In this document: piece by piece, positions 5,143-52,474 of the stretch
Numbering within the stretch: position 1 is the stretch's first letter
How the letters are laid out: each line of letters begins with the position of its first letter
NCBI GenBank assembly: GCA_003647275.1
Contig: QMMN01000010.1
Location: 1,121 to 65,120, forward strand
Reading direction: 5' to 3'
Length of the DNA: 64,000 bases
DNA from: Deltaproteobacteria bacterium
GTDB lineage: Bacteria; Desulfobacterota; Desulfobacteria; Desulfobacterales; C00003060
Notes under the pieces: generated by a model
The model's database searches: none
The model's input: the letters and a program-made list of their open reading frames with translations, nothing else
What the model was told of the DNA's origin: nothing
Translations under genes and position numbers: made by a program

Positions 5143-5300
5143 CCCAGAGGAAAAGCCCCCTCCTCAACCCACAGAGGTCTCTAACGCATAAATCAGGCTT
5201 ATAGTGCTCTCTGTTCGTTGATACAAATGACTAAGGGGAGCATCAAATCGTTTACATCGAAACAGGCTGTTACCCAAGCAGCCGTACATTGAAACACCTT

Positions 5301-5316
5301 TGGATTATTTGTTGCA
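5301..5316 (+). promoter_or_regulatory. candidate sigma54 (-24/-12) promoter upstream of the fdhA-like gene
   Basis: TGGATTATTTGTTGCA has the GG and GC elements at the exact TGGCAC-N5-TTGCA spacing. It lies about 39 nt upstream of ATG 5355. The -24 hexamer is only a half match. Confidence 0.35.
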
Positions 5317-5354
5317 AACAATATGATGCTCTCCTTAGTACAAGGCGGTCAATC

Positions 5355-7388
5355 ATGCCCAAGGTTTTGACGACCTGCTGTTTTTGCGCCTGCGGGTGCA
5401 ACTTATATCTTCAGGTCGAAGCTGGAAAGGTCATTGGGGTGACCCCCAGCAGAGAACATCCCATTACCCGGGGAAACCTGTGTCTCAAGGGATGGAACAG
5501 CTTTGAGTTTGTCCATCACAAGGACCGTCTCCGATATCCATTGATTCGAAGAAGGGGCCACCTTGTAGAGGCGGATTGGGAAAAAGCGCTGAACTTGGTT
5601 GCACAAAGGCTGGCCGAGGTCAAGGACAAATATGGCCCCCAATCATTGGGGGTACTCTCTTCTGCCAAGTGTACCAATGAGGAGAACTATCTTCTAATGA
5701 AATTTGCGCGGGCCGTGCTGAAGACCAACAATGTGGACCACTGTGCCCGGCTATGTCATTCTCCAAGTGTCATTGGGCTAAGCAATGCCTTTGGTTCCGG
5801 GGCGATGACAAACGCCATATCAGAGCTTGCCAGCGCCGAGGTCATCTTGGTGACCGGCTCCAATACGACCGAGCAGCATCCCCAGATAGCACGGTTTATC
5901 TTTGATGCCCTGGCAAGAGGGGCCAAGCTGATTGTGGTGGACCCGCGACGTATTCCGTTGAGCAGATTCGCCCATATCTATCTGCAGCCACGCCTGGGGA
6001 CTGACGTGATATGGCTAAACGGCATGACGAAAATCATCCTGGAGGAGGGGCTCCTTGACGATGCCTTTATCAAGATGCGCACTGAAAATTTCAGGGCATT
6101 CAGCGAGATGCTGAAAAACTTTGACCTCGAGCAGGTGGAAGCCATCAGCGGGATCCCCCTGGAAGATCTCCGGATGGCAGCACGGGTGTATGCCGGTGTC
6201 AAGCGGGCCATGATCATTTATTCTATGGGGATTACGCAACACATCTCTGGAACGGATAATGTGCAATCCATTGCCAACCTGGCCATGTTGACCGGGCATG
6301 TGGAACAAAAGTATACCGGGGTCGGACCGCTCCGCGGCCAGAACAATGTCCAAGGGGCCTGTGACATGGGGGCACTTCCCGGAATGTTGTCAGGCTATCA
6401 AAATGTTGCAGACGAGGGCATCAGAAAAAAGTTTGAACGCGTATGGAAGACTGATCTGCCAACAGCCCCCGGTCTGACTGAGATTGATATGTTTCATGGA
6501 ACAGGGAATAAAAAAATTCGGGCGATGTTTGTTATGGGAGAAAATCCGGCACTCAGCCACCCTGATCTTAAAGCAACACGTGCCGCCTTACAAGTATTGG
6601 AATTTATGGCAGTATCAGATATCTTCCTGACAGAGACTGCAGCGTTGGCAGACGTGGTACTGCCTGCGGCTTCGTTTGCTGAAAAGAACGGAACCGTCAC
6701 CAGTACTGAACGCCGTATTCAAAGAGTTCGAAAGGCAGTGTCTCCTATTGGTGCAAGCAGGCCAGACTGGCAGATCATATGCGAACTGGCCTCTCGGATG
6801 AATTACCCCATGGCTTACGAATCCCCGGCAGAGATTATGGAAGAGATCGCCATGCTGACCCCCATTTACGGCGGCGTATATTACGATCGGCTGGAACAGG
6901 GGTGGGGGTTGTTTTGGCCGTGCCCGAACCGAGACCATCCGGGAACGCCCTTTTTGCACAAGGGTTCATTTGTACGCGGGAAGGGACGCTTTGAATGTAC
7001 TCTATATCGTCCTCCTGCAGAAATGCCGGATGAGGCGTATCCGTTTTATCTAACCACAGGACGGATCTCCGAACATTGGCATACGGGAAGTATGAGCAGG
7101 CGGATTACGGCCCTTTCCAGAGAACGGCCAGAGGCATTTGTTGAGATCAATCCACAGGATGCAAAGCGCTTGGGGGTGGCAAACAGGAAACCGGTTCGGG
7201 TCGTTTCAAGGCGCGGAGAAATTACAGTCAAGGCACGCCTTACAGACGATGTTCCAGAAAAAACGGTCTATATCCCTTTTCACTTCACAGAGGCTCCGGC
7301 CAATATCCTCACCCATGGTCACTGCGATCCAGAGGCCAAGATCCCGGAATTTAAGGTATGCGCGGTACGGTTGGAAAAGGTGCAGTGA
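5355..7388 (+). CDS. fdhA: formate dehydrogenase alpha subunit-like molybdopterin oxidoreductase (Cys type, no signal peptide)
   Basis: The N-terminal 4Fe-4S motif is CCFCACGC...CLKG. The fold is FdhF-like MopB, and ARLCHSPSV places Cys where Sec or Cys ligates Mo. The internal ATG 5355 (MPKVLTTCCF) is preferred over the TTG at 5289. Confidence 0.82.
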   Translation: MPKVLTTCCFCACGCNLYLQVEAGKVIGVTPSREHPITRGNLCLKGWNSFEFVHHKDRLRYPLIRRRGHLVEADWEKALNLVAQRLAEVKDKYGPQSLGVLSSAKCTNEENYLLMKFARAVLKTNNVDHCARLCHSPSVIGLSNAFGSGAMTNAISELASAEVILVTGSNTTEQHPQIARFIFDALARGAKLIVVDPRRIPLSRFAHIYLQPRLGTDVIWLNGMTKIILEEGLLDDAFIKMRTENFRAFSEMLKNFDLEQVEAISGIPLEDLRMAARVYAGVKRAMIIYSMGITQHISGTDNVQSIANLAMLTGHVEQKYTGVGPLRGQNNVQGACDMGALPGMLSGYQNVADEGIRKKFERVWKTDLPTAPGLTEIDMFHGTGNKKIRAMFVMGENPALSHPDLKATRAALQVLEFMAVSDIFLTETAALADVVLPAASFAEKNGTVTSTERRIQRVRKAVSPIGASRPDWQIICELASRMNYPMAYESPAEIMEEIAMLTPIYGGVYYDRLEQGWGLFWPCPNRDHPGTPFLHKGSFVRGKGRFECTLYRPPAEMPDEAYPFYLTTGRISEHWHTGSMSRRITALSRERPEAFVEINPQDAKRLGVANRKPVRVVSRRGEITVKARLTDDVPEKTVYIPFHFTEAPANILTHGHCDPEAKIPEFKVCAVRLEKVQ

Positions 7389-8644
7389 TGCCAAACGAGC
7401 TCATTCTAAACAAGGAACACCTTACAGGCTTTTTGCGCAAGATCGCAAAAGAACGTGAACTGATCGCGCCGATAAAAAATTCATATGGGGATACGCTCTT
7501 TGAAGTCATCTCCTCTGTGGATGATGTCTCTCTTGACCTGGAAAGCAGACCGGCCATGCCTCCCAAGGATTTCTTTTTACCTCCCACCGAGACACTGTTT
7601 AACTACCAGCGTGAAGGGAAACAATATCGGTTTGAGGAAGTTCTTCCTGATGTGTCAAGGGTCTTATTTGGTCTGCGTTCCTGCGATTTGTGGGCCATTC
7701 TGTTCCTTGACGTGGTATTCCAGGAAAACTTTAAAGACCGATACTATTTAAACAGACGAAGTAACACCATATTGATCAATATTGGGTGCCATGAACCGAT
7801 GCTGAACTGCTTTTGCAAAAGCGCAAAAAGCGGACCTTTTCTGACGCAAGGATACGATCTGCAGCTCACAGACCTGGGGGACCGATTTTTTGTCGAAGTC
7901 GGACGGCCCAGGGGCAGAGAGTTGGTTGACAAATGGGACTATTTTTTCACCTCGGCAACCCAAAAAGATCGGGACGAACAGTATGAGATCGTCCTGGAAG
8001 CGGAGAGCAAATTTGGGCAGACCGTTGATCTTGATATGGCAACCTCCCGACTCATCAATCATGAGGTGGACGACGCCCTGTGGGAGGAACTCGGGAACCG
8101 TTGCCAGGGGTGCGGGGGGTGTGCCTATGTATGCCCCACGTGTTACTGCTTTAATATTGTAGACCGGCCCGTGTCAGAAACTCAAGGGGAAAGGGTCAGA
8201 ATGCACGATGCGTGTACCTTGGCCGGATTTACCCGACTTGCGGGCGGTTACAATCCACGCCAGGAAAGAAGCCGTCGGATTCGAAGGCGCTTTTATCACA
8301 AACTCCCTTTTGCCATAGAGAAATACCATCGTCCCAGCTGCGTGGGATGCGGTCGGTGTATGGAAATATGCTTTGGCCGTGTTGATATGATTCACTTTAT
8401 CAAAATGGTTTGTGAGCGAGGTAAAAAAGCATCTCAAGAAGCCTCTTTGAGGTTAGGAGAAATTCTTGTCCAGGCTGGACTTATAAGCCGTGAAGAACTC
8501 AAGGTCGCCCTTGAGAAACAGGCTGACACCGGTAAGCCACTTGGCATACAGCTCATAGAAGACGGATTGACCACAACGAAAGAGATTGCCCTCGCCCTTG
8601 GTTGTCAACTGAGGATCCCGGAGACAGCGGGAACCGAGGGATAG
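7388..8644 (+). CDS. 4Fe-4S dicluster electron-transfer subunit (AsrA/HydB-like) with C-terminal MshEN/T2SSE_N-type domain
   Basis: TGATG overlap with fdhA. Cys clusters are CQGCGGCAYVCPTCYC and CVGCGRCMEIC. The C-terminus reads RLGEILVQAGLISREELKVALEKQ-ADTGK-PLGIQLIEDGLTTTKEIALALGCQ. Confidence 0.8.
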   Translation: MPNELILNKEHLTGFLRKIAKERELIAPIKNSYGDTLFEVISSVDDVSLDLESRPAMPPKDFFLPPTETLFNYQREGKQYRFEEVLPDVSRVLFGLRSCDLWAILFLDVVFQENFKDRYYLNRRSNTILINIGCHEPMLNCFCKSAKSGPFLTQGYDLQLTDLGDRFFVEVGRPRGRELVDKWDYFFTSATQKDRDEQYEIVLEAESKFGQTVDLDMATSRLINHEVDDALWEELGNRCQGCGGCAYVCPTCYCFNIVDRPVSETQGERVRMHDACTLAGFTRLAGGYNPRQERSRRIRRRFYHKLPFAIEKYHRPSCVGCGRCMEICFGRVDMIHFIKMVCERGKKASQEASLRLGEILVQAGLISREELKVALEKQADTGKPLGIQLIEDGLTTTKEIALALGCQLRIPETAGTEG

Positions 8645-8672
8645 CGGTTTCGCTATTACAGAGGAGGTCTAT

Positions 8673-9536
8673 TTGGAAGATAGGGCTCAGACATTAGTAC
8701 GGAAGATGGTGCCCAATATTTATCAACCCTATCCTGTCTCCGTTCATGGGGTGAAGGAAGAAACCGGGGATATCAAGACCTTTACGCTTGGTTTCAAAGA
8801 CCAAGAAATACAAAATCGCTTTACTTTTCGACCAGGCCAATTTGTTTTGGTCTCTGTATTCAATTGTGGCGAGGCGCCTATCTCCATATGTTCATCCCCC
8901 ACGTTTTCCAAAGGCTTGCAGTTGAGTATAAAAAAAATGGGCCTTTTGACTGGAGAGATACATCGCTACACCGAGGGGGACGAAGTTGGTTTACGGGGGC
9001 CGTATGGCAATGGCTTTCCTCTGGAACAGCTTTGCGGCCACGACCTTTTGTTCGTTGGAGGCGGGATCGGACTAGCCCCCTTGCGCTCTCTCATCCAATA
9101 TGTCCTTTCCAAGCGATCGCAGTTCGGAGGGGTCACCATCCTTTACGGGGCAAGAACCCCTCAGGATATTGTCTTTAAGGACGATTTGGCTGCCTGGGAC
9201 AAAGAAGAAGATGTTCAGGTAACAACCACCGTGTACCGGGACAATCCAACATGGAAAGGAGAGGTTGGTCCGGTGACACGTTTGCTGGAAAAGGCTACAA
9301 TATCTCCTTCAAACACAAAGGCGATCATATGCGGCCATCCGGCTATCATTTCTTATGTGGTTTTCGATCTGCTAAAGATGGGATTTGCTGAAGAGGATAT
9401 TATCACCACCCTTGAGAGAAATATGAAATGTGGCGTTGGCAAATGCGGCCATTGCAGCATAGGAAGCAAATTCACTTGTATGCACGGTCCAGTTTTCACC
9501 TATCGAGAGATTAAGACATTCCCTACCGGGTTCTGA
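8673..9536 (+). CDS. FAD/NAD(P)-binding oxidoreductase subunit with 2Fe-2S cluster (AsrB/HydG-like)
   Basis: TTG start 5 nt after a GAGGAGG RBS. It has ferredoxin-reductase motifs (RPGQFV, GGGIGLAP) and a terminal CGVGKCGHCS motif. Confidence 0.8.
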   Translation: MEDRAQTLVRKMVPNIYQPYPVSVHGVKEETGDIKTFTLGFKDQEIQNRFTFRPGQFVLVSVFNCGEAPISICSSPTFSKGLQLSIKKMGLLTGEIHRYTEGDEVGLRGPYGNGFPLEQLCGHDLLFVGGGIGLAPLRSLIQYVLSKRSQFGGVTILYGARTPQDIVFKDDLAAWDKEEDVQVTTTVYRDNPTWKGEVGPVTRLLEKATISPSNTKAIICGHPAIISYVVFDLLKMGFAEEDIITTLERNMKCGVGKCGHCSIGSKFTCMHGPVFTYREIKTFPTGF

Positions 9537-10721: not shown

Positions 10722-11138
10722 CTACCCGTGCGCTTGATGAGATCCTCGATTCCTCATATAATCGTCCAGGGCCGCCTGTAAGGTCTCAGCAGCCAGGCTA
10801 GCACAATCCATATGGTCTCTGGGAAGACCACCCATGGATGCCTGGATAAGATCAGCGTCAATGGCCAGGATCTCATCCGGGGTTTTCCCCTTGGCAAGAT
10901 CTGCGGCAGCACAAACACAGTTTAGACTATAAACGCATCCATTGGTCTGGTAAGAGGTCTCTGCGACGCGATTTCCGGCAAATGTCAGGCGGATCTCCAT
11001 GGTGTCTCCACACCTTCCTGTCACACACGCTTTCCCGTCGGCCTTTTCTAAATGGGGATTCAGCCAGTAATAAACAAGAAACCATGCCACCACGATGACA
11101 ACAAGGACCCCGCCTGCAATAAGCATATTTGAGCACAT
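10722..11138 (-). CDS. membrane-anchored NifU/IscU-like Fe-S scaffold protein
   Basis: An N-terminal TM helix is followed by IscU-type motifs (CGDTMEI, NGCVYS, HMDCASLAAETL). ATG 11138 overlaps the apbE TAA by 1 nt; the longer ORF to 11198 would overlap apbE by 60 nt. Confidence 0.65.
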   Translation of the reverse strand: MCSNMLIAGGVLVVIVVAWFLVYYWLNPHLEKADGKACVTGRCGDTMEIRLTFAGNRVAETSYQTNGCVYSLNCVCAAADLAKGKTPDEILAIDADLIQASMGGLPRDHMDCASLAAETLQAALDDYMRNRGSHQAHG

Positions 11139-12178
11139 TAAGCCGAAGGCCACCCGTTCGACATAACTCTTGCCCCGGTGGAACTCAAGATCAGACATTC
11201 AGTCCCTGGCACATTTTCTATAAATTTCTTGCCCGCTAAGGGCCCTAAAACAAAACCTGTTGTGGAAAGGGCATCGGCATCCATCGTATTACCAGCCAGG
11301 ACGGTCACACTGGTGCTTTCAAGCGGCGAACGGCCTGTTTCCGGGTTTACAATATGATGGTATAGCTTTTCCTGATCAAAATAGACCTCGTAGTTACCGG
11401 AAGTGGCAATGGCGCCATTCACCATGGTGATGGTGTCAACATAGGGGCCTTCCTTATCGGGATTTTGAATCGCCACCTTCCACGGGATCCTGCTATCCTT
11501 ACCGCCAATGGCTCGAATATCCCCGCCAGCATTAATCAACGCATGTTTCATTCCATGTCGTTCGATCACCTTGGCTCCACAATCAATGATGTACCCCTTG
11601 GCGATTCCATCTAAGGTAACACCCATTCCGTCTTTGGCAAACCGAATGGTATGCCCATCGAACCGGATCTGACTGGCATCTACCAGGTCAAGGACCTTGG
11701 CTAATTCGGCCTCGGACGGAGGGGCCTGATGAGTCGCAAAGTGCGCCTTATAGAAATCAACCAGCGGCTTTACGGTGATGTCAAAGGCACCGTTGCTGGC
11801 CTTATGAAAATAGAGCGAACGGGCAATGACCTCTGACACTTCCAGGGGAAGGTCGGAGATATAGCCGTCCCGGTTGAGCATTCCAATGGCCGAAGCTGAC
11901 TGGTAACGATTCACCAACCGGGCAACCCGATCCATCTCTTCAAAGGCCATCCCGATCACCTCTTCGGCCTCGGCCTTTGAGGGGTGCATCACGGTAATCG
12001 CTGCAAAGGTCCCCATGGAAAGCCGCGCCCTGGTTACTTTATACAGTTTTCTGTTGAAGGCCACACTCTCTGAAACCGGCATCAAGCCACCAAAGGCAAA
12101 TCCCATACCAAGAATGCCTGAGTATTTCAGAAAGGTTCTTCGGTCCATGGTTCGATGGTTTTCTTCTTGAGCATACAT
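11138..12178 (-). CDS. apbE: FAD:protein FMN transferase (flavin-trafficking protein)
   Basis: Tat-type signal (DRRTFLKYSGILGMGFAFG) plus ApbE motifs (LDGIAKGY, ATSGNYE). A GGGGGA RBS precedes ATG 12178. Confidence 0.85.
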   Translation of the reverse strand: MYAQEENHRTMDRRTFLKYSGILGMGFAFGGLMPVSESVAFNRKLYKVTRARLSMGTFAAITVMHPSKAEAEEVIGMAFEEMDRVARLVNRYQSASAIGMLNRDGYISDLPLEVSEVIARSLYFHKASNGAFDITVKPLVDFYKAHFATHQAPPSEAELAKVLDLVDASQIRFDGHTIRFAKDGMGVTLDGIAKGYIIDCGAKVIERHGMKHALINAGGDIRAIGGKDSRIPWKVAIQNPDKEGPYVDTITMVNGAIATSGNYEVYFDQEKLYHHIVNPETGRSPLESTSVTVLAGNTMDADALSTTGFVLGPLAGKKFIENVPGTECLILSSTGARVMSNGWPSA

Positions 12179-12324: not shown

Positions 12325-13194
12325 TTAAGAAGCTACGGCTTCTTTTGCCTTTTCCATCCTTTCCTCAAGGTGGAATGGTTGCACGACATGGATTATATCG
12401 CAGGCCTCTATACAGATTTCCTTGCAAGCAGGTCCGTATTCCATGCATTTGTTCTGGTCGATGGTTACCACACCATCCACCTCAGAGATCGCATTGGCCG
12501 GGCATTCCCTGATGCAGGCCCCACAATGAATACACCCGTTCTCGCAGATGGTTCGCGTGACTTTACGGCTATCCTTGGTGCTGCACCGGATCAGTACCCG
12601 GGCGTTCCTGGGGACCAAGCTGATAATCCCTTTAGGGCAGGTCTTGACACATATGCCGCAGCCTACACAGAGATCTTTCGTGATAACCGGGAAATTGTCC
12701 ACCATGGTGATCGCGTCAAAGGGACAAGCTTTGGCACATTCCCCAAATCCAACGCAGCCGTACTGGCACTCCATGGGACCGGCAAAGGCCAGATCCGCTC
12801 CAGAGCACGCCCCATAGCCGATATAGTTATATTTTTTGTGTACGTGTCCCTGGACCCTGGAGCAGTGGACAGCGGCTACGAGGTCCTCGACGGCGCCTGG
12901 TTTCTTTCCCGTAATTTCAGCCACGGCATCAGCCACTTCCTTTTTGCCAGGAAAACAGAGATTTGGTGGAACATCTGGTTCGGTCACCACAGCTTCGGCG
13001 TATGCTTCACACCCGGGGAAGCCGCACCCGCCTCATTGCGCCCCGGCCAGGGTCTCCTTCACCTCTTCAATCTTGGGATTAATTTCCACCGCAAATTTAT
13101 GGGCGGCCAGGGCAAGCCCAATACCAAAGAACAGGCCGATAACGCCGAGGACGGTCAAGCCACCAAGGGCTAATTTGACTAATGCTGGATCCAT
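12325..13194 (-). CDS. rnfB: Rnf complex subunit B with in-frame TGA (13033-13035) at a conserved Cys position; putative selenoprotein
   Basis: ATG 13194 with a GGAAGGGA RBS opens MDPALVKLALGGLTVLGVIGLFFGIGLALAAHKFAVEINPKIEEVKETLAGAQ. This is followed by TGA and then, in frame, GGCGFPGCEAYAEAVVTEPD... running into ORF 12325..12990, which carries several 4Fe-4S ferredoxin motifs. Confidence 0.7.
12990..13024 (-). other. candidate bacterial SECIS-like hairpin downstream of the rnfB UGA
   Basis: An imperfect hairpin starts 9 nt after the UGA. The outer stem is CGGCUUC/GAAGCUG and the inner stem is GGGUGU/AUACGCC with a bulge, folded by eye. Confidence 0.3.
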
Positions 13195-13216: not shown

Positions 13217-14176
13217 TCAGAAAATCGACATGCCTGAAAAGCCCAGAAAGGCCAGGGCGAAAAGCCCTGCCACGACAAAAGCAATGGGCAGCCCTCTGAA
13301 CGTGGGCGGCACATTAGCCAGTTCCAGCTTTTCCCGTACAGAGGACATCAAAAACAGTGCGATCAAAAATCCTGTCCCGGCTCCGAGGGAAAGCATTAAG
13401 CTCTCCCATGCATTGTATTCGTTGTCTGCCAGTATCAGGGGAACCGCTATGATGATGCAGTTTGCAATGACAAGGACAAGGTACACTCCAAACGCCTTAA
13501 ATAAGGCAGGGTTGACCTTCCTTAAGATGGTATCCACCGCCTGGACTGAAAGGGAAACCAGTCCGATAAAGACAACCACCTGTAAGAAGTCGAGGTGGTA
13601 GGGTTTCAGGACAAACTGGTAGAGAAACCACGACATCATGGAGGCAAAGACAATAACAATCGTAAAGGTTATGCCCATTCCGACAGCCGTTGTCTTCTTC
13701 TGAGAAGTGCCGAAAAACACGCAAAGGCCTAGATACTTGGTAAAGACAAAGTTATTAATGATCATTGCCCCGATTAGAATAGAAAAGAGATACCCAAAAT
13801 AGAGCTTCTTCACCGTTAGGATCGCTGTCCCCTGGGACCTTCCTGCAGACATCATTTCTGTGACGGTTAAGATATGGGCTTGGTCCTGGTTCAGAGCATC
13901 TTCAAAGGTCAGGGTTACCGTTCTCTTATCAGGGCTCAGGGCGATGTCGGTAATTTTCAACAGGATGTCCGGGTCTTGTTTTTCGTAAACCGAATAGTTG
14001 GCCACATCTTTTGCCCAGGTCTCATCTACAGGCCCTGCAAAGGTCATCACAACCTTGTTTTTGTCCTTGAACGCGACCTTTTTGACAAAACGATGTTCTG
14101 TTGCACATCCGGTTAAAAGGAGTACCCATATAAAGAACGTACACACCAGTATATGATGCCGTCTATCCATTCTCAT
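13217..14176 (-). CDS. rnfA: Rnf complex subunit A with an N-terminal lipoprotein-type extension of about 125 aa
   Basis: The C-terminal 190 aa or so is canonical RnfA (INNFVFTKYLGLCVFFG..., AFVVAGLFALAFLGF). The N-terminus has a signal plus lipobox (LLLTGC) and a beta-rich domain. ATGA overlap with rnfE. Confidence 0.8.
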   Translation of the reverse strand: MRMDRRHHILVCTFFIWVLLLTGCATEHRFVKKVAFKDKNKVVMTFAGPVDETWAKDVANYSVYEKQDPDILLKITDIALSPDKRTVTLTFEDALNQDQAHILTVTEMMSAGRSQGTAILTVKKLYFGYLFSILIGAMIINNFVFTKYLGLCVFFGTSQKKTTAVGMGITFTIVIVFASMMSWFLYQFVLKPYHLDFLQVVVFIGLVSLSVQAVDTILRKVNPALFKAFGVYLVLVIANCIIIAVPLILADNEYNAWESLMLSLGAGTGFLIALFLMSSVREKLELANVPPTFRGLPIAFVVAGLFALAFLGFSGMSIF

Positions 14177-14793
14177 AACCCTTTTTTCCTTCGGTTATAA
14201 ACGACTTCTATATAGTTGAACATCGCCATCATGAGGCCAACCAAAAAGAACCCTGCGGCCGGGAGGGCAAAGAAAAGGAGCGGTCGGAAACCGAGGATAT
14301 CATACCCTAAGAGCGTGCCCATCCCCAAAAGCTCCCGGACAAAACCGAGGGTCATCATCGCAAACATAAACCCGAGTCCCATGCCAAGACCGTCCCAGAA
14401 GGAGGCGGTGACCGTATTCTTGCAGGCAAACATCTCCAAACGCATGGTAATAATCGCAAAGGCTACGATTAACTTTACAAAGATACCCATGGCCTTATAT
14501 GCCACCGGGACATAGGCGGCCAAAACCAGGTCGATCACCGTGACCCATGTGGCGATGGTCAGCGTATAAGTGGGGATCCGGATACGGGGGTGAATGTAAT
14601 CCTTAATGAGTGCGATGGTACAACTCGAAAAAACCTGTACGAAAAGGACGGCGATCCCAAGGAGGAGGCCGTTCATAACGCTTGTGCTGATCCCCACAGC
14701 CGGGCACATCGAAAGGGCCAAACGGAAGATCGGGTTCTCATTTAGGATGCCGTTAACAAACAGTTCTTTGTTCGTCTTAGTTGTAGGTGCCAA
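14173..14793 (-). CDS. rnfE: Rnf complex subunit E
   Basis: RnfE/NqrD family (NGILNENPIFRLALSMCPAVGIST). TTG 14793 with an AGGGAG RBS is preferred; the GTG-initiated ORF to 14847 would run into a repeat element. Confidence 0.8.
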   Translation of the reverse strand: MAPTTKTNKELFVNGILNENPIFRLALSMCPAVGISTSVMNGLLLGIAVLFVQVFSSCTIALIKDYIHPRIRIPTYTLTIATWVTVIDLVLAAYVPVAYKAMGIFVKLIVAFAIITMRLEMFACKNTVTASFWDGLGMGLGFMFAMMTLGFVRELLGMGTLLGYDILGFRPLLFFALPAAGFFLVGLMMAMFNYIEVVYNRRKKGL

Positions 14794-14822
14794 TCTCTTT
14801 CTCCCTGCACGAAGTCTACGTT

Positions 14823-14950
14823 GTGAAGCCTCCCTGTGTTTCTGCACAGGGGCCCTGCCTTACGGCAGTGCTTTGGCGTCCGGGGAGCAAGCCGGTCAAA
14901 ACTGATAGGCCTTTCGGTTCGCAGAGGCGTGAGTCACCCCGGACAGTGAA
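14823..14950. repeat. hairpin-rich intergenic repeat, type Y, copy 1 (between rnfG and rnfE)
   Basis: GTGAAGCC, then hairpin CCCTGTG/CACAGGG, then CTGCC-TTAC-GGCAG, then GCGTCCGGGGAGCAAGCCGGTCAA. This is shared with 49053.., 51587.. and, inverted, 26533... Confidence 0.7.
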
Positions 14951-14959
14951 ACCTTTATA

Positions 14960-15874
14960 CTAAAAGGTTACTGCAATATGTTGACTTGCGATCACCTTGT
15001 TCAGCTTACCCATGCGGTATGCAAACTTTTTTATGATATTTTTAACACCATTTGTCACCGACCTACTGGAGATGGTCGCCCCGGTTAGGGCATAGATATC
15101 ATGGTCTTGATATTTGCTCCGTATGCTTTCAATCTCTTGTTCGGAAAACATGCCTTTTTTCCATTTCTTTGTCTCCAGGTATCTTTTATACTTATCCGGG
15201 AGGGGTTCCTTGATAACTTTGAGCCTCTTCACCTTCTCAAAGGACTTTCCTTTAAACTGATTCTTAAAATATTCCTGTTCGATCTCAGCACCCAGCCCTG
15301 GGTCTTCCTCGTGTTCCATGATCTCCAGGCCAAGGATTTTGAAGTTTGGATCCAAGGCCAACATGACCGAGATGAATGTCTTGAAACCAGGAAATTCACC
15401 AGGAAGCAGGTAGGCCAATTGCTTATCCCCCAGCCTGGCAATGATCGTGGTATCAGCGTAGGTAAAGGTCTTTGGATGCCTTAGCACTGTTTTCAAGGCC
15501 GTCTCACGTTCTCCTTCTTCAATAGCTGCTTCGGGTGAGATGGGCACCTCAAGCTTCTCTACGAATTTCCCTGCCAGGTTAATCACCACCAACTCGTAAC
15601 CCTCTGTAGCCCCCTTTTTTACGGGGACCATGTATCCGATGTACTTCGCCTCTCCATCTTCAATAATATAGCGGTATACGCTATGAAACCTAAGGTCTGA
15701 AGGAGCGGGATTGGCCTTGGTGTATCCCAGCAAAGCAAGCATGGTCTCCTGCACATTTAGATGTTCGTTGTGCTTCTTAGCTTTGGCAGTTATGGTAAAG
15801 ACCAGCCCCATGATTGAACCAGCAATCAGACAAGAAATGGTCAGGCCTATGGTAATTCGTAGGATCTGCTTCAT
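14960..15874 (-). CDS. rnfG: Rnf complex subunit G (FMN-binding), longer than usual (304 aa)
   Basis: N-terminal TM helix and the FMN_bind motif ALTGATISSRSV. ATGA overlap with rnfD. Confidence 0.82.
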   Translation of the reverse strand: MKQILRITIGLTISCLIAGSIMGLVFTITAKAKKHNEHLNVQETMLALLGYTKANPAPSDLRFHSVYRYIIEDGEAKYIGYMVPVKKGATEGYELVVINLAGKFVEKLEVPISPEAAIEEGERETALKTVLRHPKTFTYADTTIIARLGDKQLAYLLPGEFPGFKTFISVMLALDPNFKILGLEIMEHEEDPGLGAEIEQEYFKNQFKGKSFEKVKRLKVIKEPLPDKYKRYLETKKWKKGMFSEQEIESIRSKYQDHDIYALTGATISSRSVTNGVKNIIKKFAYRMGKLNKVIASQHIAVTF

Positions 15875-16938
15875 TTTTGAGCACCTTCTTGTGGTTGCGG
15901 GGCAAAACGTCTGGGTTTAAACCATTGGTCTATGGCAGGCGTCAGGGTGTTCATCAGCAAGATGGCATAACAAACCCCTTCCGGATAGCCTCCCTTCAAC
16001 CGGATCAGAACGGTCAGGGCGCCGATCCCGGCTCCAAAGAATAATTGGCCTGCCTTCTGGTTGGGAGATGTGACGTAATCGGTGGCCATGAAAAAGGCTC
16101 CCAGTATCACGCCTCCTGACAGCACAGCCAACAAGGGGTTGCCTGTAAAGAGTTTTTCACCGCCGAAAACCCAGGTAAAAAAACCAACAGACACAATGAC
16201 TGATACCGGGATATGCCAGGTGATGTATTTCTTATAAATCAGAAAAAGTCCGCCAATAATAAGCAAAAAGGCGGAAGTCTCACCAATACAGCCGGGTCTC
16301 CAACCAATAAAGAAATTGCCGTAGATAGAAGCCAATGACCCAAATTTTTCAATCACCGCCCCAATGCCGTAATGCTTTAGGACATAAAGCGGCGTGGCGG
16401 TCGTGATGGCATCAACCCCGGTTCCCATGTATTTGAAAATCGAGGCGTCCCGAATGGGTAGGAGCCAGGCCGACGTCATGGCCACCGGATATGTGGCAAC
16501 CAGAAAGGCCCGACCAATAAGGGCAGGATTGAATATGTTAAATCCAATGCCACCCATGAGAACCTTTGTCACAAAGATGGCCATGACCGCACCCAGGATA
16601 GGCATCCAGTAGGGCACGCCAGGCGGGATGATGTAGGCCAGCAGGACCCCTGTAATCACTGCGCTGCCATCTTTGACTGTAACAGGACGATGCAAAAGCT
16701 TCTGAGATATCGCCTCGGTTGCAACGCAGCTTGCCACACTGATGACAGTGATGATTAGCGTTTGGAAACCAAAGATGAAAACAGACAAAATAAGCGGCGG
16801 CATCAAGCAGGCCACAACCGTCCACATGATCTTGTTAATGGTTTCCGCGCTTTTGACATGCGGCGAAACCGACACAAACAAGCGAGCTGGCTTCTCTACT
16901 TCTGTTATAGCGGTTGTTTCAGTTTGTGTTTCCACCAT
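15871..16938 (-). CDS. rnfD: Rnf complex subunit D
   Basis: Polytopic NqrB/RnfD family protein (GGVILGAFFMATDYVTSP) with an AGAGGA RBS. Confidence 0.88.
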   Translation of the reverse strand: MVETQTETTAITEVEKPARLFVSVSPHVKSAETINKIMWTVVACLMPPLILSVFIFGFQTLIITVISVASCVATEAISQKLLHRPVTVKDGSAVITGVLLAYIIPPGVPYWMPILGAVMAIFVTKVLMGGIGFNIFNPALIGRAFLVATYPVAMTSAWLLPIRDASIFKYMGTGVDAITTATPLYVLKHYGIGAVIEKFGSLASIYGNFFIGWRPGCIGETSAFLLIIGGLFLIYKKYITWHIPVSVIVSVGFFTWVFGGEKLFTGNPLLAVLSGGVILGAFFMATDYVTSPNQKAGQLFFGAGIGALTVLIRLKGGYPEGVCYAILLMNTLTPAIDQWFKPRRFAPQPQEGAQK

Positions 16939-16965
16939 CCTGGTCCTCTTGTTATTTCATAGCTC

Positions 16966-17096
16966 TTCAGGGAGTAAGGAATACCGCTGAACGTAGGCAT
17001 CCAGTCCCATTTCCAGCAAGGATAACAGCCCAGCGACTAAAGACATTGGATGCTGAGGAGAAGTGGTTGTCCTTACCCCAGATGCTAAACGATTAC
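16966..17096 (-). repeat. structured intercistronic repeat, type X, copy B (between rnfC and rnfD)
   Basis: Homologous to 12203..12317 and begins 1 nt after the rnfC stop. It carries a 25-nt insertion that can pair internally (GCATCCA/TGGATGC). Confidence 0.75.
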
Positions 17097-17097
17097 G

Positions 17098-18519
17098 TTA
17101 TTTCTTTTTGGATTCCCTGATCTTCATCTTGGCCAGCCTTATAAATTGCACCAAAGGCCTCTTTGCGGGGCACACAAAGGCGCACGAGCCACACTCAAAA
17201 CAATCATCAATGCCAAATTGTTCTGTCTCGGCACCACGTCCTGCCTCCACATAGATGCCAATATTGTTTGGCTCAAGCCCCATGGGACAGGCCTCAAGGC
17301 AAAATCCGCATCGAATACAAGGATAATAAGACTCGGTGTCGACCTCATCTTTTGTGAGGAAAAGCACCCCCGAGGTGGTCTTGGTTATGGGGATATCGAA
17401 GGTGGAGACCGAAAATCCCATCATTGGGCCGCCGATGACTACCTTGACAAGGTCTGGCGTGGTTCCCCCTAAATAGTCCACGATATCGGCAAGGCTTGTT
17501 CCCACCTTCACCATGAGATTTGCTGGCCGCTTGATCCCCTTGCCAGCAATGGTGACCACTCTTTCGTAAAATGGTTTACCAAAAGCGACCGCATCGTAAA
17601 TCGCCTTTGTGGTGTATACGTTTTGAACAATGATACCAATTGCTGAGGAGCGCGCACCTGCAGGCCGCACCCGGCCGGTTAGACTCTGCATGATCTGGTC
17701 TGCAGACCCCTGAGGATATTTGACTTTAAGGGGCTTTACAGCAATTTTGTAACCATTTTTCGACGTGTCTTGAGCAATGGCCCGATTTAAAGCCTCTATG
17801 GCATCGGGCTTGTTGTTCTCAATGCCAATGGCGCAATAGTCGATGCCAAGAATCTTCAAAATGATCTTGGCCCCTTCGATAATATCATGGGGATGTTCGA
17901 CCATGATGCGGTGATCACTGGTCAGATATGGCTCACACTCCGCTCCATTCAATATCAGGGTATCGACCTTGACATCTGGCCCAAGGGTAAGTTTAGCATG
18001 AGCAGGGAACCCGGCACCGCCCAACCCAACGATTCCAGCATCTTTGATCCTGGCAATAAGCTCTTCTCTGGAAAACTTCTTCCAGTCTACCGAAGAATAC
18101 GACCTTGGCTCCGCCTCTGGATCCGCAGAAATTACCAGGGCAGGCGCCTTTCCCACCATGGGATGCTGGACATTCTCAACACCCTCCAGCGTACCGCTCA
18201 AACTGGCATGGAGGTTTGCACCCAGGCCCTTCTCAACGGATCCGACTAGATCCCCCTCGAAGACCTTGTCCTTTTTCTTGACCAAAAGCTGGTAGAGATC
18301 CCCTGCATGTCGCTTCAAAAAAAGACGCTCCTCTGAAGGCGTCGTCATGACCCTTTTCTTGACCGAAACTCGGCAGGGCGCTCCTGCGTGTTGCTTCAAA
18401 AATAGGCGCACTTGCGAGGGAGGCGGCATGACCTCCACAGGAAGCTTTTCGGTCAGTTCCTTGGATTCTTTGGGGTGGATGCCCCCTTTTGGGAATGTCG
18501 CCAATGTCTCAGCAGCCAT
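17098..18519 (-). CDS. rnfC: Rnf complex subunit C
   Basis: GLGGAGFPAHAK and two 4Fe-4S motifs (CIRCGFCLEACP, CFECGSCAFVCP), with an AGGGAGAG RBS. The N-terminus contains a tandem duplication of about 26 aa. Confidence 0.88.
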   Translation of the reverse strand: MAAETLATFPKGGIHPKESKELTEKLPVEVMPPPSQVRLFLKQHAGAPCRVSVKKRVMTTPSEERLFLKRHAGDLYQLLVKKKDKVFEGDLVGSVEKGLGANLHASLSGTLEGVENVQHPMVGKAPALVISADPEAEPRSYSSVDWKKFSREELIARIKDAGIVGLGGAGFPAHAKLTLGPDVKVDTLILNGAECEPYLTSDHRIMVEHPHDIIEGAKIILKILGIDYCAIGIENNKPDAIEALNRAIAQDTSKNGYKIAVKPLKVKYPQGSADQIMQSLTGRVRPAGARSSAIGIIVQNVYTTKAIYDAVAFGKPFYERVVTIAGKGIKRPANLMVKVGTSLADIVDYLGGTTPDLVKVVIGGPMMGFSVSTFDIPITKTTSGVLFLTKDEVDTESYYPCIRCGFCLEACPMGLEPNNIGIYVEAGRGAETEQFGIDDCFECGSCAFVCPAKRPLVQFIRLAKMKIRESKKK

Positions 18520-18565: not shown

Positions 18566-19078
18566 CTACCCTGCAAAGCCCTTTGATAGCACAGCCTGAC
18601 CGTATGCCTCCCTTGTCTCCTGGGAAAGCTCGCCCGGTTTGCCAAAACGCAAGGCGTTGGTGGTGCAGGCCGCTACACAGGCCGGTTCCAGTCCCTCATC
18701 GATCCTATCCATACAAAGATCGCATTTGATGGCTTTGCCTGTTTGGGGATTCCACTGGGGAATATTCCAGGGACAGGCCGTGATGCACGCTTTGCAGCCC
18801 GCACATAGATCGGCCACGATGTACACGATGCCGTCTTTGGCTCTCCTTCGGATGGCCTCGGTCGGGCAGGCACCTATGCACCAGGCGTCCTCACAGTGAA
18901 AGCAAGGAAGAAACAGGGCCGACATCCTTGGTACGCCATTTACCAGTTTCGGCCCGAGTATGACGATCTTTCCCAGGCTTGCGCCCTGGGGGACATTGTT
19001 CTTGGCCTTGCAGTGTACCTCACAGGCGTGACAGGCAATGCATCGCTGTGGATCCGTAGAAATACAATAAGCTCCCAT
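18566..19078 (-). CDS. 4Fe-4S multi-cluster ferredoxin subunit (DmsB/PsrB-like) of the molybdopterin enzyme
   Basis: A 170 aa ORF with Cys groups CIACHACEVHC, CFHCEDAWCIGACP, CAGCKACITACP and CDLC...C. Confidence 0.8.
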   Translation of the reverse strand: MGAYCISTDPQRCIACHACEVHCKAKNNVPQGASLGKIVILGPKLVNGVPRMSALFLPCFHCEDAWCIGACPTEAIRRRAKDGIVYIVADLCAGCKACITACPWNIPQWNPQTGKAIKCDLCMDRIDEGLEPACVAACTTNALRFGKPGELSQETREAYGQAVLSKGFAG

Positions 19079-19163
19079 ATCCTTACCTCCTCAGAATATG
19101 TTTTTCATGTGAATCGGGCTTTCTTCCTGAGCGTCCTTTGTGTACGCATGGAGCACTAAACCA

Positions 19164-21251
19164 TCACGCCTTTTTCACGCTCACCAGGGTGTGATCAAGG
19201 GCCGGACTTCCGCCTATGGTATCCATGATGTGTTCCTGAAGCAATGTATCGGCCACACCCCGCTTGTAGCTCCTGGTGCATCCGGCCTCCTGGTGACCAA
19301 AACCATGGAGTATAAAGACCGCTTCAGGATGAATCAGATCGGTGACAAAGGCCCTTAATGTTCCTTTACCCACCTTTGAACTTACCTCTACCATCTCGTT
19401 GTTCTTAATCCCCAAAGCTTCGGCTTTCTTGTTGTTGATCCAGAGCACGTTTTCGGATACGAGTTCGTTCAAGTAAGGGTTGTTCTGGGTAGCGACATGG
19501 GTGTGGGCCGCACAGCGGCCAACCATAAGCCGGAAAGTACTCTCAGGGGTTTCCAGCTTTTCATAGGGAGGAAAAGAGGGAAAGCCGTGTTCCTCCATCA
19601 AGCTTGAAACAAACTCAATCTTGCCCGAAGGGGGCTTGAACTTGAGGCCGTCTTTTCGGTCCCACCATATGGGTTTGTCGCTCAGCTCAACAAATCCCTT
19701 TGCTTCAAAATCCTCTGGTTTGAGTCCCAGATCAGCCAGTTGATAATTCCAAATATCCTCGATGGATTCATAGGGGAAATATTCACCCGCTCCCAGCCTT
19801 TCAGCCAGGGCCTTTACAATCCACCACCCCGGCTTCGTGTCATACCGAGGCGTCACGCACTGCACCCGCCGGTAGGGAGCCGGTTTCAGGCCCGGGAACA
19901 TCTTGATAGGATCTGACCGTTCCAAGAATGTGGACTCTGGCAAAACCACATCGCTCATCCAGGTGATTCCGCCCCAGTTGATATCAATACTGACAATGAG
20001 GTCCAGTTTTTCAAGGGCCTTGAGGTTTTGGTTAAGGTCGGGGATCGAGTACAAGGGGTCAAAACGGAAGGCGAAAAGGACCTTGATGGGATAGGGGTCC
20101 TCATTTAGTACAGCCAAGGGGAACATGCCCCCAACGCCGTGAGCTGGATCCGCAATAGGGTACTTATCCTGCCCGCAACCGTCGAACCTACGGGTATCCT
20201 CCATCTTGGGAAACTTCTGGCTTGAATAGTTGCGCAATCCAGCCTTATGACCGGCATCCTTGGGGCCCTTCTTGAAGAAGATGCCGCCCTTTGCCTCAAT
20301 ACTCCCCATAAGGGCGTTTAAGATCAAGAGCGAACGCCTAAAATAGATCTCATTAGGGTGATTCGCGCCCCTGTAACCATAGTGAAAGATAACAGACGGT
20401 TTGGCCTCGCCTAGTTCCTGCGCCAGTGCAACAATTTCATTGGCCGGGATACCGGTTTCCTCTTCTGCCCACTCCGGGGTGTAACGATCGACAAAGGTAC
20501 GGAGCTTCTCGAAACCATCGACCCACCGATCCACATATTCCGCGTCAAAGAGGCGCTCCTTGATAATGACGTTCATCAGGGCATAATTGAGGGCAAGGTC
20601 GGTTCCTGGCCGAATCATCAGGTAACGGGTGGACTTTGCGGCTGTGATCGTAACCCGTGGATCCACATAGGTCAGCTTGGCCCCCTTTCCCATGGCGTCG
20701 AGCAGGTTATTAACCGCCTTTACTTCTATGGCCTCAAAGATATTGCGGCCATAGAGCACAATGTGTTTGGTGTTTCCATAGTCAACACTGATCTGGGCGT
20801 CGGTGTACCCGAAAAGGGATCTGCACGCCGTGTTGACCGACCCCTTACATAAAGCGTCATGGGTAAAATAATTGGGGGTTCCTATAGCCTTTGTAAAGGT
20901 CTTGCTCAGGTCTGTAATGAAATTGGTCCTTTCACACCAGACAGCGGATTTGCTTCCGTATTTTGAAAAAATTTCCTTGCATTTCTCGGCCGTGTAATCA
21001 AGGGCCTCATCCCAGCTCACCCTCTTCCACTGGCCCGAACCGCGTGGACCGGTTCTGATCATCGGAGCCTGTAGCCTTTCTGTGTCGTTAAGCAGCCCGG
21101 TGGCCGCTGCGCCCTTGGGGCATACCCCCCCCTTCATGGCCCCTACATAGGGATTGCCCTCTATGCTTACAATTTCATCGTCTTCCACAACGACCTTTAT
21201 GGGGCATCGAATCGAACACATAAAGCAAAGCGTATACACGACCTTTTTCAT
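19164..21251 (-). CDS. molybdopterin (MopB family) oxidoreductase catalytic subunit, no Tat signal, substrate unknown
   Basis: A 695 aa ORF. The N-terminal motif is CFMCSIRC...CPKG, a candidate Mo-ligand Cys lies in THDALCKGS, and the layout resembles PsrA/PhsA/Ttr. Confidence 0.8.
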   Translation of the reverse strand: MKKVVYTLCFMCSIRCPIKVVVEDDEIVSIEGNPYVGAMKGGVCPKGAAATGLLNDTERLQAPMIRTGPRGSGQWKRVSWDEALDYTAEKCKEIFSKYGSKSAVWCERTNFITDLSKTFTKAIGTPNYFTHDALCKGSVNTACRSLFGYTDAQISVDYGNTKHIVLYGRNIFEAIEVKAVNNLLDAMGKGAKLTYVDPRVTITAAKSTRYLMIRPGTDLALNYALMNVIIKERLFDAEYVDRWVDGFEKLRTFVDRYTPEWAEEETGIPANEIVALAQELGEAKPSVIFHYGYRGANHPNEIYFRRSLLILNALMGSIEAKGGIFFKKGPKDAGHKAGLRNYSSQKFPKMEDTRRFDGCGQDKYPIADPAHGVGGMFPLAVLNEDPYPIKVLFAFRFDPLYSIPDLNQNLKALEKLDLIVSIDINWGGITWMSDVVLPESTFLERSDPIKMFPGLKPAPYRRVQCVTPRYDTKPGWWIVKALAERLGAGEYFPYESIEDIWNYQLADLGLKPEDFEAKGFVELSDKPIWWDRKDGLKFKPPSGKIEFVSSLMEEHGFPSFPPYEKLETPESTFRLMVGRCAAHTHVATQNNPYLNELVSENVLWINNKKAEALGIKNNEMVEVSSKVGKGTLRAFVTDLIHPEAVFILHGFGHQEAGCTRSYKRGVADTLLQEHIMDTIGGSPALDHTLVSVKKA

Positions 21252-46116: not shown

Positions 46117-46214
46117 ATATCGTTGAAGGGCAAACCTCCCGAAAGGTAGGGGCGCAAAGCTTCCGGTCTAAATCCCCCTGATGCGGATAGGACAGCGGGG
46201 CTACCAAACGATAG
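46117..46214 (+). promoter_or_regulatory. c-di-GMP-I (GEMM-I) riboswitch aptamer
   Basis: GAAGGGCAAACCUCCCGAAAGGUAGGGGCGCAAAGCUUCCGGUCUAAAUCC...GGACAGCGGGGCUACCAAACG aligns block by block with V. cholerae Vc2 (CAGGGCAAACCAUUCGAAAGAGUGGGACGCAAAGCCUCCGGCCUAAACC...GGUAGCGGGGUUACCGAUGG). P1 is UAUCGUU/AACGAUA. Confidence 0.88.
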
Positions 46215-46221
46215 CAAGGAA

Positions 46222-46257
46222 CAGCCTGCTTCTTTCCTTTCGAGAGCGGCTTTTTTT
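46222..46257 (+). terminator. intrinsic terminator forming the riboswitch expression platform
   Basis: The GCCTGCT...AGCGGC stem is followed by T7, 20 nt before ATG 46277. Confidence 0.6.
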
Positions 46258-46276
46258 AGGGCCAAGGAGGTGGATC

Positions 46277-52059: not shown

Positions 52060-52089
52060 TTGACAAAGCGCGAATAGTGTGCTTATACA
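52060..52089 (+). promoter_or_regulatory. candidate sigma70 promoter of trxA-trxB
   Basis: TTGACA, a 17/18-nt spacer, then TTATAC/TATACA. Confidence 0.45.
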
Positions 52090-52147
52090 TAAAAAGTTGA
52101 GATCGGGTGCATGCTTGGCAAATCCAAAGAAAATAAGGAGTGTTTCC

Positions 52148-52474
52148 ATGACACAAGGTGTTCTGGATGTTGACGACACAAACTTTGAATCACAGATATT
52201 AAAGGCTGATAAGCCCGCCTTAGTCGATTTTTGGGCACCATGGTGCGGACCCTGTAAAGCCATTGCTCCAGTTATCACGGAACTGGAAAAGGCTTATGGG
52301 GACAGAATAATTTTTGCCAGATGTAATGTCGACACCAGTCCCAATACCCCCACACAATACAGTATTCGTGCCATCCCTACCCTCATCCTGTTTCAAAACG
52401 GCAAAGTGGTTGACCAGATCGTTGGCGCCGTACCAAAATCCCATCTGGAAGAGGCCGTAAAAAAGATACTCTGA
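52148..52474 (+). CDS. trxA: thioredoxin
   Basis: The WCGPC active site is present. The internal ATG 52148 (MTQGVLDVDD) follows an AGGAG RBS. Confidence 0.92.
   Translation: MTQGVLDVDDTNFESQILKADKPALVDFWAPWCGPCKAIAPVITELEKAYGDRIIFARCNVDTSPNTPTQYSIRAIPTLILFQNGKVVDQIVGAVPKSHLEEAVKKIL

Follow-up and report, generated by a model that had tools for sequence, protein, structure and literature searches.

An in-frame UGA at a cluster-ligand codon of rnfB points to a widespread candidate selenoprotein in the Rnf complex

The rnfB gene encodes the RnfB subunit of the Rnf complex, a respiratory ion pump, and in a Deltaproteobacteria bacterium it is interrupted by a single in-frame UGA at codon 54. The gene lies on contig QMMN01000010.1 of assembly GCA_003647275.1, within a stretch of 64,000 nucleotides (positions 1,121 to 65,120 of the contig) that was analysed here as a whole and is called the window. 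The interrupted codon is the one at which other RnfB proteins have the first cysteine (Cys) ligand of a [4Fe-4S] cluster. Comparison of the gene with its relatives indicates that UGA-54 is very probably decoded as selenocysteine (Sec) and, if it is so decoded, that Sec54 is likely to be a ligand of the cluster. With moderate confidence we extend this to the family as a whole, in which RnfB would be a widespread, uncatalogued selenoprotein of sediment Desulfobacterota and Nitrospirota-like bacteria, with Sec directly ligating the mobile [4Fe-4S] cluster of the gate domain.

The minus-strand open reading frame (ORF) of rnfB runs from an ATG at 13194 to a TAA at 12325, with the TGA at 13035..13033 as its only in-frame stop. 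A mechanical ORF list divides the gene into 13033..13194, of 53 amino acids (aa), and 12325..12990, which starts with GTG and encodes 221 aa. Around the stop the translation reads …EEVKETLAGAQ-stop-GGCGFPGCEAYAEAVV…, followed by 17 residues and then a Cys. The RnfB motif thus takes the form U-x2-C-x4-C-x17-C here, and the domain contains no further Cys. With Cys put in for the stop, the protein scored 380.9 bits against the NCBIfam RnfB equivalog NF005503 (cutoff 252) and 102.4 bits against TIGR01944 (cutoff 68.7). It has the architecture of RnfB throughout, with an N-terminal transmembrane (TM) anchor, a PF04060 domain with the spacing C-x2-C-x4-C-x16/17-C and ferredoxin domains, except that the first position of the motif is the UGA. 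A single TM anchor is also what has been described for RnfB (PMC9588780).

Searches with phmmer against chains of the Protein Data Bank aligned codon 54 with a Cys in the RnfB proteins of Acetobacterium woodii (9ERI_B; E = 3e-56), Clostridium tetanomorphum (7ZC6_B; E = 1e-51) and Azotobacter vinelandii (8AHX_B, …GSQCGQCGFPGC…). An earlier, sequence-only reading of this DNA had reported an in-frame TGA at 13033-13035 in a minus-strand rnfB and had equated it with the first Cys of a CxxCxxxxC motif. The ORF and its translation bear out the former statement, and the alignment to three solved RnfB chains supports the latter.

The cluster bound by this motif has a central role in the complex. In C. 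tetanomorphum, residues 40-90 of RnfB form a small, highly mobile domain (FdI), whose CxxCxxxxC...C motif binds the [4Fe-4S] cluster RnfB-1. A swinging movement has been proposed for this domain, with cluster RnfB-2 at one end and the iron centre between RnfA and RnfE at the other (PMC9588780). At higher resolution in A. woodii, the B8 domain carries the terminal cluster of RnfB, which reduces the membrane [2Fe-2S] centre AE1 (PMC11889175). Mutants of A. woodii in the Cys ligands of B8 do not grow autotrophically, and their purified enzyme is inactive and contains four Fe fewer (PMC11889175). Because these mutations abolish growth as well as activity, the TGA falls on a ligand of an essential cluster.

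Pairs of TGA and Cys codons at this column, which the sequence-only reading had proposed to look for by aligning RnfB orthologs, were found in numbers. A search of reference genomes, with one genome per species, gave 80 related loci. Seven of these carried TGA at the same column (L003, L004, L005, L007, L011, L014 and L045); they belong to Desulfobacterales, Ca. Desulfacyla and related metagenome-assembled genomes, encode proteins with 61-68% identity to the window protein, and, apart from the TGA, have intact ORFs of about 289 codons. TGC or TGT occupied this column in all 66 other reference loci in which the motif was found, and the two closest loci, L001 and L002 (72% identity), are of the Cys type.

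Metagenomes were scanned with a degenerate DNA pattern that required TGA within x-[Q/N/H/K]-U-G-[G/A]-C-G-[F/Y]-x-G-C, and at least 119 stretches matched. Among the matches listed, about 105 were rnfB genes with one in-frame TGA at the codon-54 column. They fall into at least four subfamilies that differ in length and flanking residues (…LAGAQ-U-GGCGF/Y…; …LAHAH-U-GACGF…EQYAEAVV, with 294 codons downstream; …LPGAN-U-GACGF…ES…; and …LAGGQ-U-GACGF…), and identity among these subfamilies is only 40-75%. Overall, at least 112 genes, 93 of them non-redundant, carried the TGA, whereas all others compared had Cys. Recurrence of the TGA at one column in more than 100 independent contigs excludes chance as its origin.

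The sequences that flank the TGA on either side share the same kind of constraint. Among 52 genes from the largest subfamily, the 40 codons preceding the TGA differed by 0.15/0.06/0.58 per first, second and third codon position, and the 60 codons following it by 0.18/0.12/0.58. This excess at third positions on either side implies that both halves are translated in one frame and are maintained by purifying selection.

Immediately downstream of the UGA, the TGA genes share a short hairpin that, judged from its conservation, behaves like a bacterial selenocysteine insertion sequence (SECIS). RNAalifold, applied to eight genome-derived TGA genes, gave a hairpin of 7 bp, GCUUCGC-[NGGNU]-GYGAAGC, at alignment columns 20-26/32-38. 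A spacer of 10 nt (13032..13023) separates it from the UGA, and the loop starts 17 nt past the UGA; this spacing is identical in the 93 TGA genes, without indels. A spacer of this size agrees with the short, fixed distance that characterizes bacterial SECIS elements. In the bSECISearch model, the apical loop of a bacterial SECIS lies roughly 16-37 nt downstream of the UGA. The loop has the sequence NGGNU, in which the GG is invariant; these two bases belong to the Gly61 codon and are also fixed by the retrieval pattern.

The sequence-only reading had placed an imperfect hairpin at 12990..13024, at the position expected for a SECIS. The position holds for the shorter stem-loop at 13004..13022, which begins 10 nt past the UGA and is conserved. 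The longer helix, which is the outer helix of the minimum free energy (MFE) fold, is not conserved. We rejected this outer helix (GGCUUC with GAAGCN of the A-E-A codons), as it uses the same 5' bases as the conserved hairpin; furthermore, column 21 was paired in only 70% of the Sec genes under this pairing, and no covariation was observed.

The hairpin was compared between the 93 non-redundant TGA genes and 61 Cys genes retrieved with the same motif expression. At least six of the seven pairs were present in all 93 TGA genes, compared with 5 of the 61 Cys genes (Fisher p about 1e-36), and the pair count of the Cys genes centred on 3-4 of 7. Likewise, the mean MFE of the 24-nt stretch was -9.3 kcal/mol in the Sec genes versus -4.2 kcal/mol in the Cys genes. 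When RNAalifold was run locally on all 93 sequences, the hairpin of the eight-sequence run was not recovered, and the named structure was therefore tested explicitly. On alignment A3, 90.6% of the cells were paired, versus 28-48% when the 3' partner was slid by 1-3 columns, and the covariation score of the hairpin was reached by none of 500 shuffles.

One pair illustrates this covariation. Across the Sec genes, columns 21 and 37 were C-G in 63 genes, G-C in 22, A-U in 5 and U-G in 2. Column 21 holds the third, synonymous position of the Gly58 codon, and column 37 the first position of the codon that follows Glu63. When the latter codon started with G (Ala/Gly), Gly58 was encoded by GGC or GGU in 65 genes, with an unpaired GGG in one more; when it started with C (Gln), Gly58 was GGG in 22 of 22 genes; and when it started with U (Ser), Gly58 was GGA in 5 of 5. 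The Cys genes showed no relation between the two columns. Codon usage in the stem was similarly narrow. Within the AQ-U-GG family, the Gly codon of the stem was GGC in 59 of 60 genes (synonymous entropy 0.12 bits) and its Glu codon was GAA in 58 of 60 (0.21 bits), whereas the two Gly codons just upstream had 1.50 and 1.86 bits and the Glu four codons further on had 0.86 bits. Because the Gly and Glu codons of the stem are nearly fixed while codons for the same amino acids nearby vary, the constraint on silent sites is restricted to the stem.

The TGA and Cys forms of rnfB are not separated into two lineages but interleaved. A crude average-linkage tree of 176 RnfB sequences required a Fitch minimum of 19 state changes, and the nearest neighbours of the window RnfB, at 72-75% identity, include both states. 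Such dynamic exchange between Sec and Cys is the pattern of established selenoprotein families. The closest Cys-type orthologs, L001 and L002, which have TGT at this position, keep the hairpin with six of the seven pairs and the same GGCTTCCCAGGTTGTGAAGC (L001:3172-3192 and L002:3159-3179), and they are two of the five Cys genes with at least six pairs. In these two genes the hairpin may be a fossil SECIS left by a recent conversion from Sec to Cys.

Several observations weigh against the reading of UGA-54 as a cluster-ligating Sec. With respect to the hairpin, a number of stem and loop bases, including the GG of the loop, are dictated by the encoded residues and the retrieval pattern, such that only the unconstrained columns (21, 25-27 and 34-38) count as independent evidence, and the covariation stems from about two clade-level events. 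The hairpin of the window itself contains one C.U mismatch (13017/13009), because residue 60 is Pro rather than Ala, and its energy is -5.1 kcal/mol versus the group mean given above. A single-sequence fold of the 66 nt past the UGA was no better than shuffles (z = -0.40), and searches with Rfam, run at gathering score and at E <= 10, returned no SECIS family; models of this type give poor coverage of the short SECIS hairpins of bacteria. With respect to the decoding machinery, neither selA, selB or selD nor tRNA-Sec was found in the 64-kb window or in the fetched loci. The search for tRNA-Sec covered the window and about 200 loci, and Pfam annotation of the rest of the window gave no sel genes. 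A lack of sel genes in the window is what unlinked genes would give. Moreover, a scan of the 64-kb window for genes split by a single TGA yielded no other selenoprotein gene, only rnfB being convincing. Finally, no biochemical precedent for a natural Sec-ligated [4Fe-4S] cluster was found in the searchable literature.

The conservation data demand that the UGA is read through, and the residue inserted could be a standard amino acid (Trp, Cys or Gly), placed there by near-cognate suppression or under a reassigned genetic code. We consider this very unlikely. TGA is the ordinary stop of rnfA, rnfE, the gene for elongation factor G (EF-G) and other genes in the window, and because it ends these neighbouring genes normally the genetic code here is the standard one. 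The UGA stands exactly at the column of a metal-ligand Cys, where it swaps only with TGC or TGT, and the conserved hairpin at SECIS distance goes with TGA and not with TGC or TGT. Moreover, the phyla of the bacteria concerned (Desulfobacterota, Nitrospirota-like) are reported users of Sec, and Deltaproteobacteria are reported to be rich in selenoproteins. We infer that Sec, and not some other amino acid placed by read-through, occupies position 54.

A second alternative takes the UGA as a true stop and supposes a two-piece RnfB, in which the first 53 aa form a membrane-anchor peptide and a separate, soluble ferredoxin is translated from an internal GTG (codon 68/69, or 86). In-frame GTG codons are indeed available downstream, and gene callers give exactly these products, of 53 aa and of 203 or 221 aa. 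However, Cys57 and Cys62 are encoded within the 14 codons that separate the UGA from the earliest of these starts, and in more than 90 genes these codons are conserved at the protein level while varying at wobble positions. This agrees with the warning of the sequence-only reading that conserved residues would be lost if the stop were real. A start at Val68 or later would drop three of the four ligands of the essential cluster and would leave the ferredoxin piece without a membrane tether, and a two-piece RnfB gives the covariation of the hairpin no role. Such a division of the protein is highly improbable.

A pseudogene, with rnfB knocked out by a nonsense mutation, might be suspected from a premature stop at codon 54 of 289, and the stop-riddled rnf operons on metagenome contigs L145 and L174 would fit such decay. 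We attach next to no probability to it, as more than 100 genes of at least four subfamilies, intact in every other respect, have exactly one stop, always at this codon and with a strong third-position excess on both sides, and all other rnf genes are intact. The sequence-only reading had listed a pseudogene among its alternatives and had named relatives with the same stop and decayed flanks as the sign of it; the full-length ORFs and the equal constraint on either side of the TGA contradict the alternative, and the flanks are under purifying selection instead. Contigs L145 (Ga0124853_1172789) and L174 differ from all other loci in that their rnfA, rnfB and apbE regions are full of stops and frame breaks; they are either low-quality assemblies or truly decaying rnf operons.

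The other alternative raised earlier, a sequencing or assembly error that turned TGC or TGT into TGA by a single base, can be set aside as practically nil, since the same TGA occurs in more than 100 unrelated samples, the identical 53-aa product of the window is recorded on four contigs from JGI/IMG, Logan and ENA, the matching C-terminal products of 203 or 221 aa are recorded on further contigs, and about 160 database entries are 53-aa RnfB fragments.

These entries form five clusters at 90% identity, with 7, 41, 84, 25 and 2 members, from hundreds of contigs. IMG labels the fragments 'electron transport complex protein RnfB', and 53-aa entries at NCBI include MCD4715627.1 ('hypothetical protein') and MDQ1333531.1. 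Each of the database fragments goes with an N-terminally truncated ferredoxin. Among the 120 best full-length RnfB homologs, none had a U or an X.

The window RnfB shares its TM anchor, its PF04060 FdI/B8 domain with x2-C-x4-C-x17-C, its polyferredoxin domains and the operon rnfCDGEAB-apbE with the known Cys-type RnfB proteins (9ERI, 7ZC6 and 8AHX). It differs from them in that its first ligand is encoded by UGA instead of TGC or TGT, and in the hairpin within the codons of the motif; its nearest Cys-type relatives are 72-75% identical. Selenium in the Rnf complex has been noted before. Peng et al. (2016) listed 71 known or predicted bacterial selenoprotein families, including RnfC with 25 organisms (PMC5029168, Table S3), and RnfB is not among these 71. 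Since RnfC is already catalogued with Sec forms, a dependence of Rnf on selenium is in itself nothing new. RnfC has Sec forms in some anaerobes and belongs to the same complex, but it is a different subunit, and the window RnfC has no in-frame TGA. A tblastn comparison of homologous operons likewise gave no conserved internal stop in the other Rnf subunits, including RnfC. In open-access full text, RnfB and selenocysteine or selenoprotein were mentioned only separately, although an earlier mention elsewhere is possible.

The SECIS of Escherichia coli fdhF is a stem-loop that starts 11 nt past the UGA and whose apical-loop G and U are contacted by SelB. The hairpin of rnfB resembles it in being a short stem-loop within the coding sequence, here with a 10-nt spacer, a loop 17 nt past the UGA and G residues in the loop. 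It differs in having only 7 bp, a 5-nt NGGNU loop and no evident bulged U, and the GG of its loop is also dictated by Gly.

The sequence-only reading had called Sec ligation of the N-terminal cluster mechanistically unusual, and the literature agrees. In a 2023 review on the redox biology of selenium, the metal sites described for Sec are Mo/W, in formate dehydrogenase, and Ni, in hydrogenase, with no case of an Fe-S cluster. As proposed for RnfB, Sec replaces a metal-binding Cys in formate dehydrogenase and [NiFeSe] hydrogenase, which are low-potential enzymes of anaerobes with coexisting Sec and Cys isoforms; the metals there are catalytic Mo/W or Ni, whereas RnfB would use the iron of an electron-transferring [4Fe-4S] cluster. 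Sec197 of HdrA in Hdr-Vhu-Fwd of Methanococcus maripaludis also lies in a low-potential Fe-S flavoprotein and is not found in all lineages, but it forms a Cys-Sec pair between a cluster and flavin adenine dinucleotide (FAD) and does not ligate the cluster (PMC13518236). The same small fold and Cys motif as in RnfB occur in the N-terminal [4Fe-4S] domain (PF04060) of the corrinoid iron-sulfur protein (PMC9588780). The protein context of this domain differs from that of RnfB. We know of no Sec forms of it.

If UGA-54 is decoded as Sec, a ribosome arriving at this codon of the rnfB mRNA would encounter the 19-nt stem-loop within the G58-A64 codons, which would recruit SelB with Sec-tRNA(Sec). Sec would be inserted, and translation would proceed across the remainder of FdI and the polyferredoxin part to yield a membrane-anchored RnfB of 289 residues. 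Together with Cys57, Cys62 and Cys80, Sec54 would then bind the one [4Fe-4S] cluster that the mobile, ferredoxin-like N-terminal domain carries; we infer this ligation because the ligand Cys is exactly replaced and the domain has no spare Cys. The cluster, equivalent to RnfB-1 of C. tetanomorphum and B8 of A. woodii, would be the last one in RnfB and would swing onto RnfA/E, where its electron would pass to the membrane-embedded Fe/[2Fe-2S] centre, a step proposed to gate Na+ uptake. At this gating cluster, selenium may tune the potential or the kinetics of electron transfer. Its benefit might lie, speculatively, in a shifted potential, in faster electron transfer, or in an altered stability of the reduced, docking-competent state.

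The features of rnfB and of its operon are compiled in Table 1. The gene order is rnfC-D-G-E-A-B followed by apbE; the operon is intact, and its context is conserved in related loci.

Table 1. Coordinates in the window of rnfB, its proposed selenocysteine codon and SECIS-like hairpin, and the surrounding rnf operon.
Feature	Position	Strand	Evidence or remark
Full-length rnfB coding sequence, read through the UGA	12325..13194	-	289 codons + stop; ORF, Pfam, NCBIfam
In-frame UGA, codon 54, proposed selenocysteine	13033..13035	-	First-Cys position of the CxxCxxxxC...C motif
N-terminal TM anchor helix (about residues 8-31)	13102..13173	-	Hydrophobic LALGGLTVLGVIGLFFGIGLALAA; aligns with TM helix region of 9ERI_B and 7ZC6_B
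FdI / 'B8' domain, PF04060 (residues 49-81, across the TGA)	12952..13050	-	Pfam E = 7.7e-9; single mobile [4Fe-4S] cluster
Cys57, second ligand	13024..13026	-	TGY invariant in all aligned homologs
Cys62, third ligand	13009..13011	-	Codon falls within the SECIS-like hairpin
Cys80, fourth ligand	12955..12957	-	Spacing matches that in PMC9588780
C-terminal polyferredoxin part of RnfB (about residues 146-262)	12409..12759	-	Fer4_7, Fer4_9, Fer4; aligns to 9ERI_B and 7ZC6_B
SECIS-like 19-nt hairpin	13004..13022	-	RNAalifold consensus, conservation, covariation
Hairpin, 5' arm GCUUCCC	13022..13016	-	
Hairpin, loop CGGGU	13015..13011	-	
Hairpin, 3' arm GUGAAGC	13010..13004	-	
Upstream operon span, rnfC to rnfA	13217..18519	-	
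rnfC	17098-18519	-	Pfam, gene calls; intact
rnfD	15871-16938	-	Pfam, gene calls; intact
rnfG	14960-15874	-	Pfam, gene calls; intact
rnfE	14173-14847	-	Pfam, gene calls; intact
rnfA	13217-14176	-	Pfam, gene calls; intact
apbE (flavin transferase), directly downstream of rnfB	11138..12178	-	PF02424, E = 2.4e-74

Features of three other Rnf subunits were also noted. RnfA (319 aa) carries an N-terminal extension of roughly 125 aa (residues 1-125), with a lipoprotein-like signal (…LLLTGC…), ahead of its Rnf-Nqr domain, and the extension had no Pfam match. The extended form occurs in many Desulfobacterota-type rnf operons at 74-80% full-length identity, beside both Sec-type and Cys-type rnfB, and is absent from the Nitrospirota-like clade. 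For these reasons we regard the extension as a lineage trait unrelated to Sec, and the idea that it tracks the Sec state was rejected. In RnfC, about residues 35-85 of the N-terminal barrel-sandwich domain contain a tandem duplication of about 27 aa (RLFLKQHAGAPCRVSVKK / RLFLKRHAGDLYQLLVKK), and Pfam assigned two RnfC_N stretches to this protein. RnfG (304 aa) matched FMN_bind only at residues 163-282, and its N-terminal part of roughly 160 aa exceeds a simple TM anchor with linker.

Two molybdopterin-oxidoreductase modules flank the rnf operon. One of them, at 18566-21251 (-), includes a Fer4_11 subunit and is the immediate upstream neighbour of rnfC, in the same orientation; the other, at 5289-9536 (+), includes subunits with Fer4_22 and with a DHODB-like NAD-binding domain. 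They may form a ferredoxin- or NAD-linked redox module that works with Rnf. Elsewhere in the window, at 52064-53386 (+), a thioredoxin of the Cys type (WCGPC) adjoins a thioredoxin-reductase-like flavoprotein with a TGA between them; this pair was rejected as a selenoprotein candidate, the intervening TGA being a genuine stop. A cyclic di-GMP (c-di-GMP) riboswitch of type I (RF01051) was found at 46119-46208 (+), with 73.6 bits against a gathering score of 35. It overlaps the start of an ORF for a FliD-like flagellar cap protein at 46181-47551 (+; PF07195/PF02465), which suggests that c-di-GMP controls this filament-cap gene.

The sequence comparisons support the selenocysteine proposal of the sequence-only reading, and we read the finding as a new bacterial selenoprotein family with a SECIS in the coding region, of which the unusual trait would be the placement of Sec at a ligand of an essential, mobile [4Fe-4S] cluster. 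One consequence concerns annotation. Because databases split rnfB into a 53-aa fragment and a truncated ferredoxin, the Rnf complex looks broken in metabolic reconstructions of many sulfate reducers and their relatives, and a Sec-aware gene model would mend this. Furthermore, the interleaved forms and the hairpin-bearing Cys genes offer a good system for studying the turnover between Sec and Cys where the SECIS overlaps the codons of other ligands.

The affected cluster is central to the complex, as it is the terminal one, carried on the swinging domain, and its reduction is proposed to trigger docking to RnfA/E and Na+ uptake. The proposed natural exchange of S for Se at one ligand, set against sister enzymes with Cys that are 72-75% identical, provides a ready test of how ligand chemistry affects potential and gating at about -500 mV. 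If the proposed reading is true, an Fe-S cluster would join Mo, W and Ni among the metal sites ligated by Sec, and RnfB would be the first case of natural selenolate ligation of an iron-sulfur cluster in a respiratory ion pump. Selenium would then tune the potential or the kinetics of the step that triggers Na+/H+ uptake. Hence, the energy conservation of these organisms would be selenium-dependent, and the supply of selenium would be linked to energy conservation in anoxic sediments.

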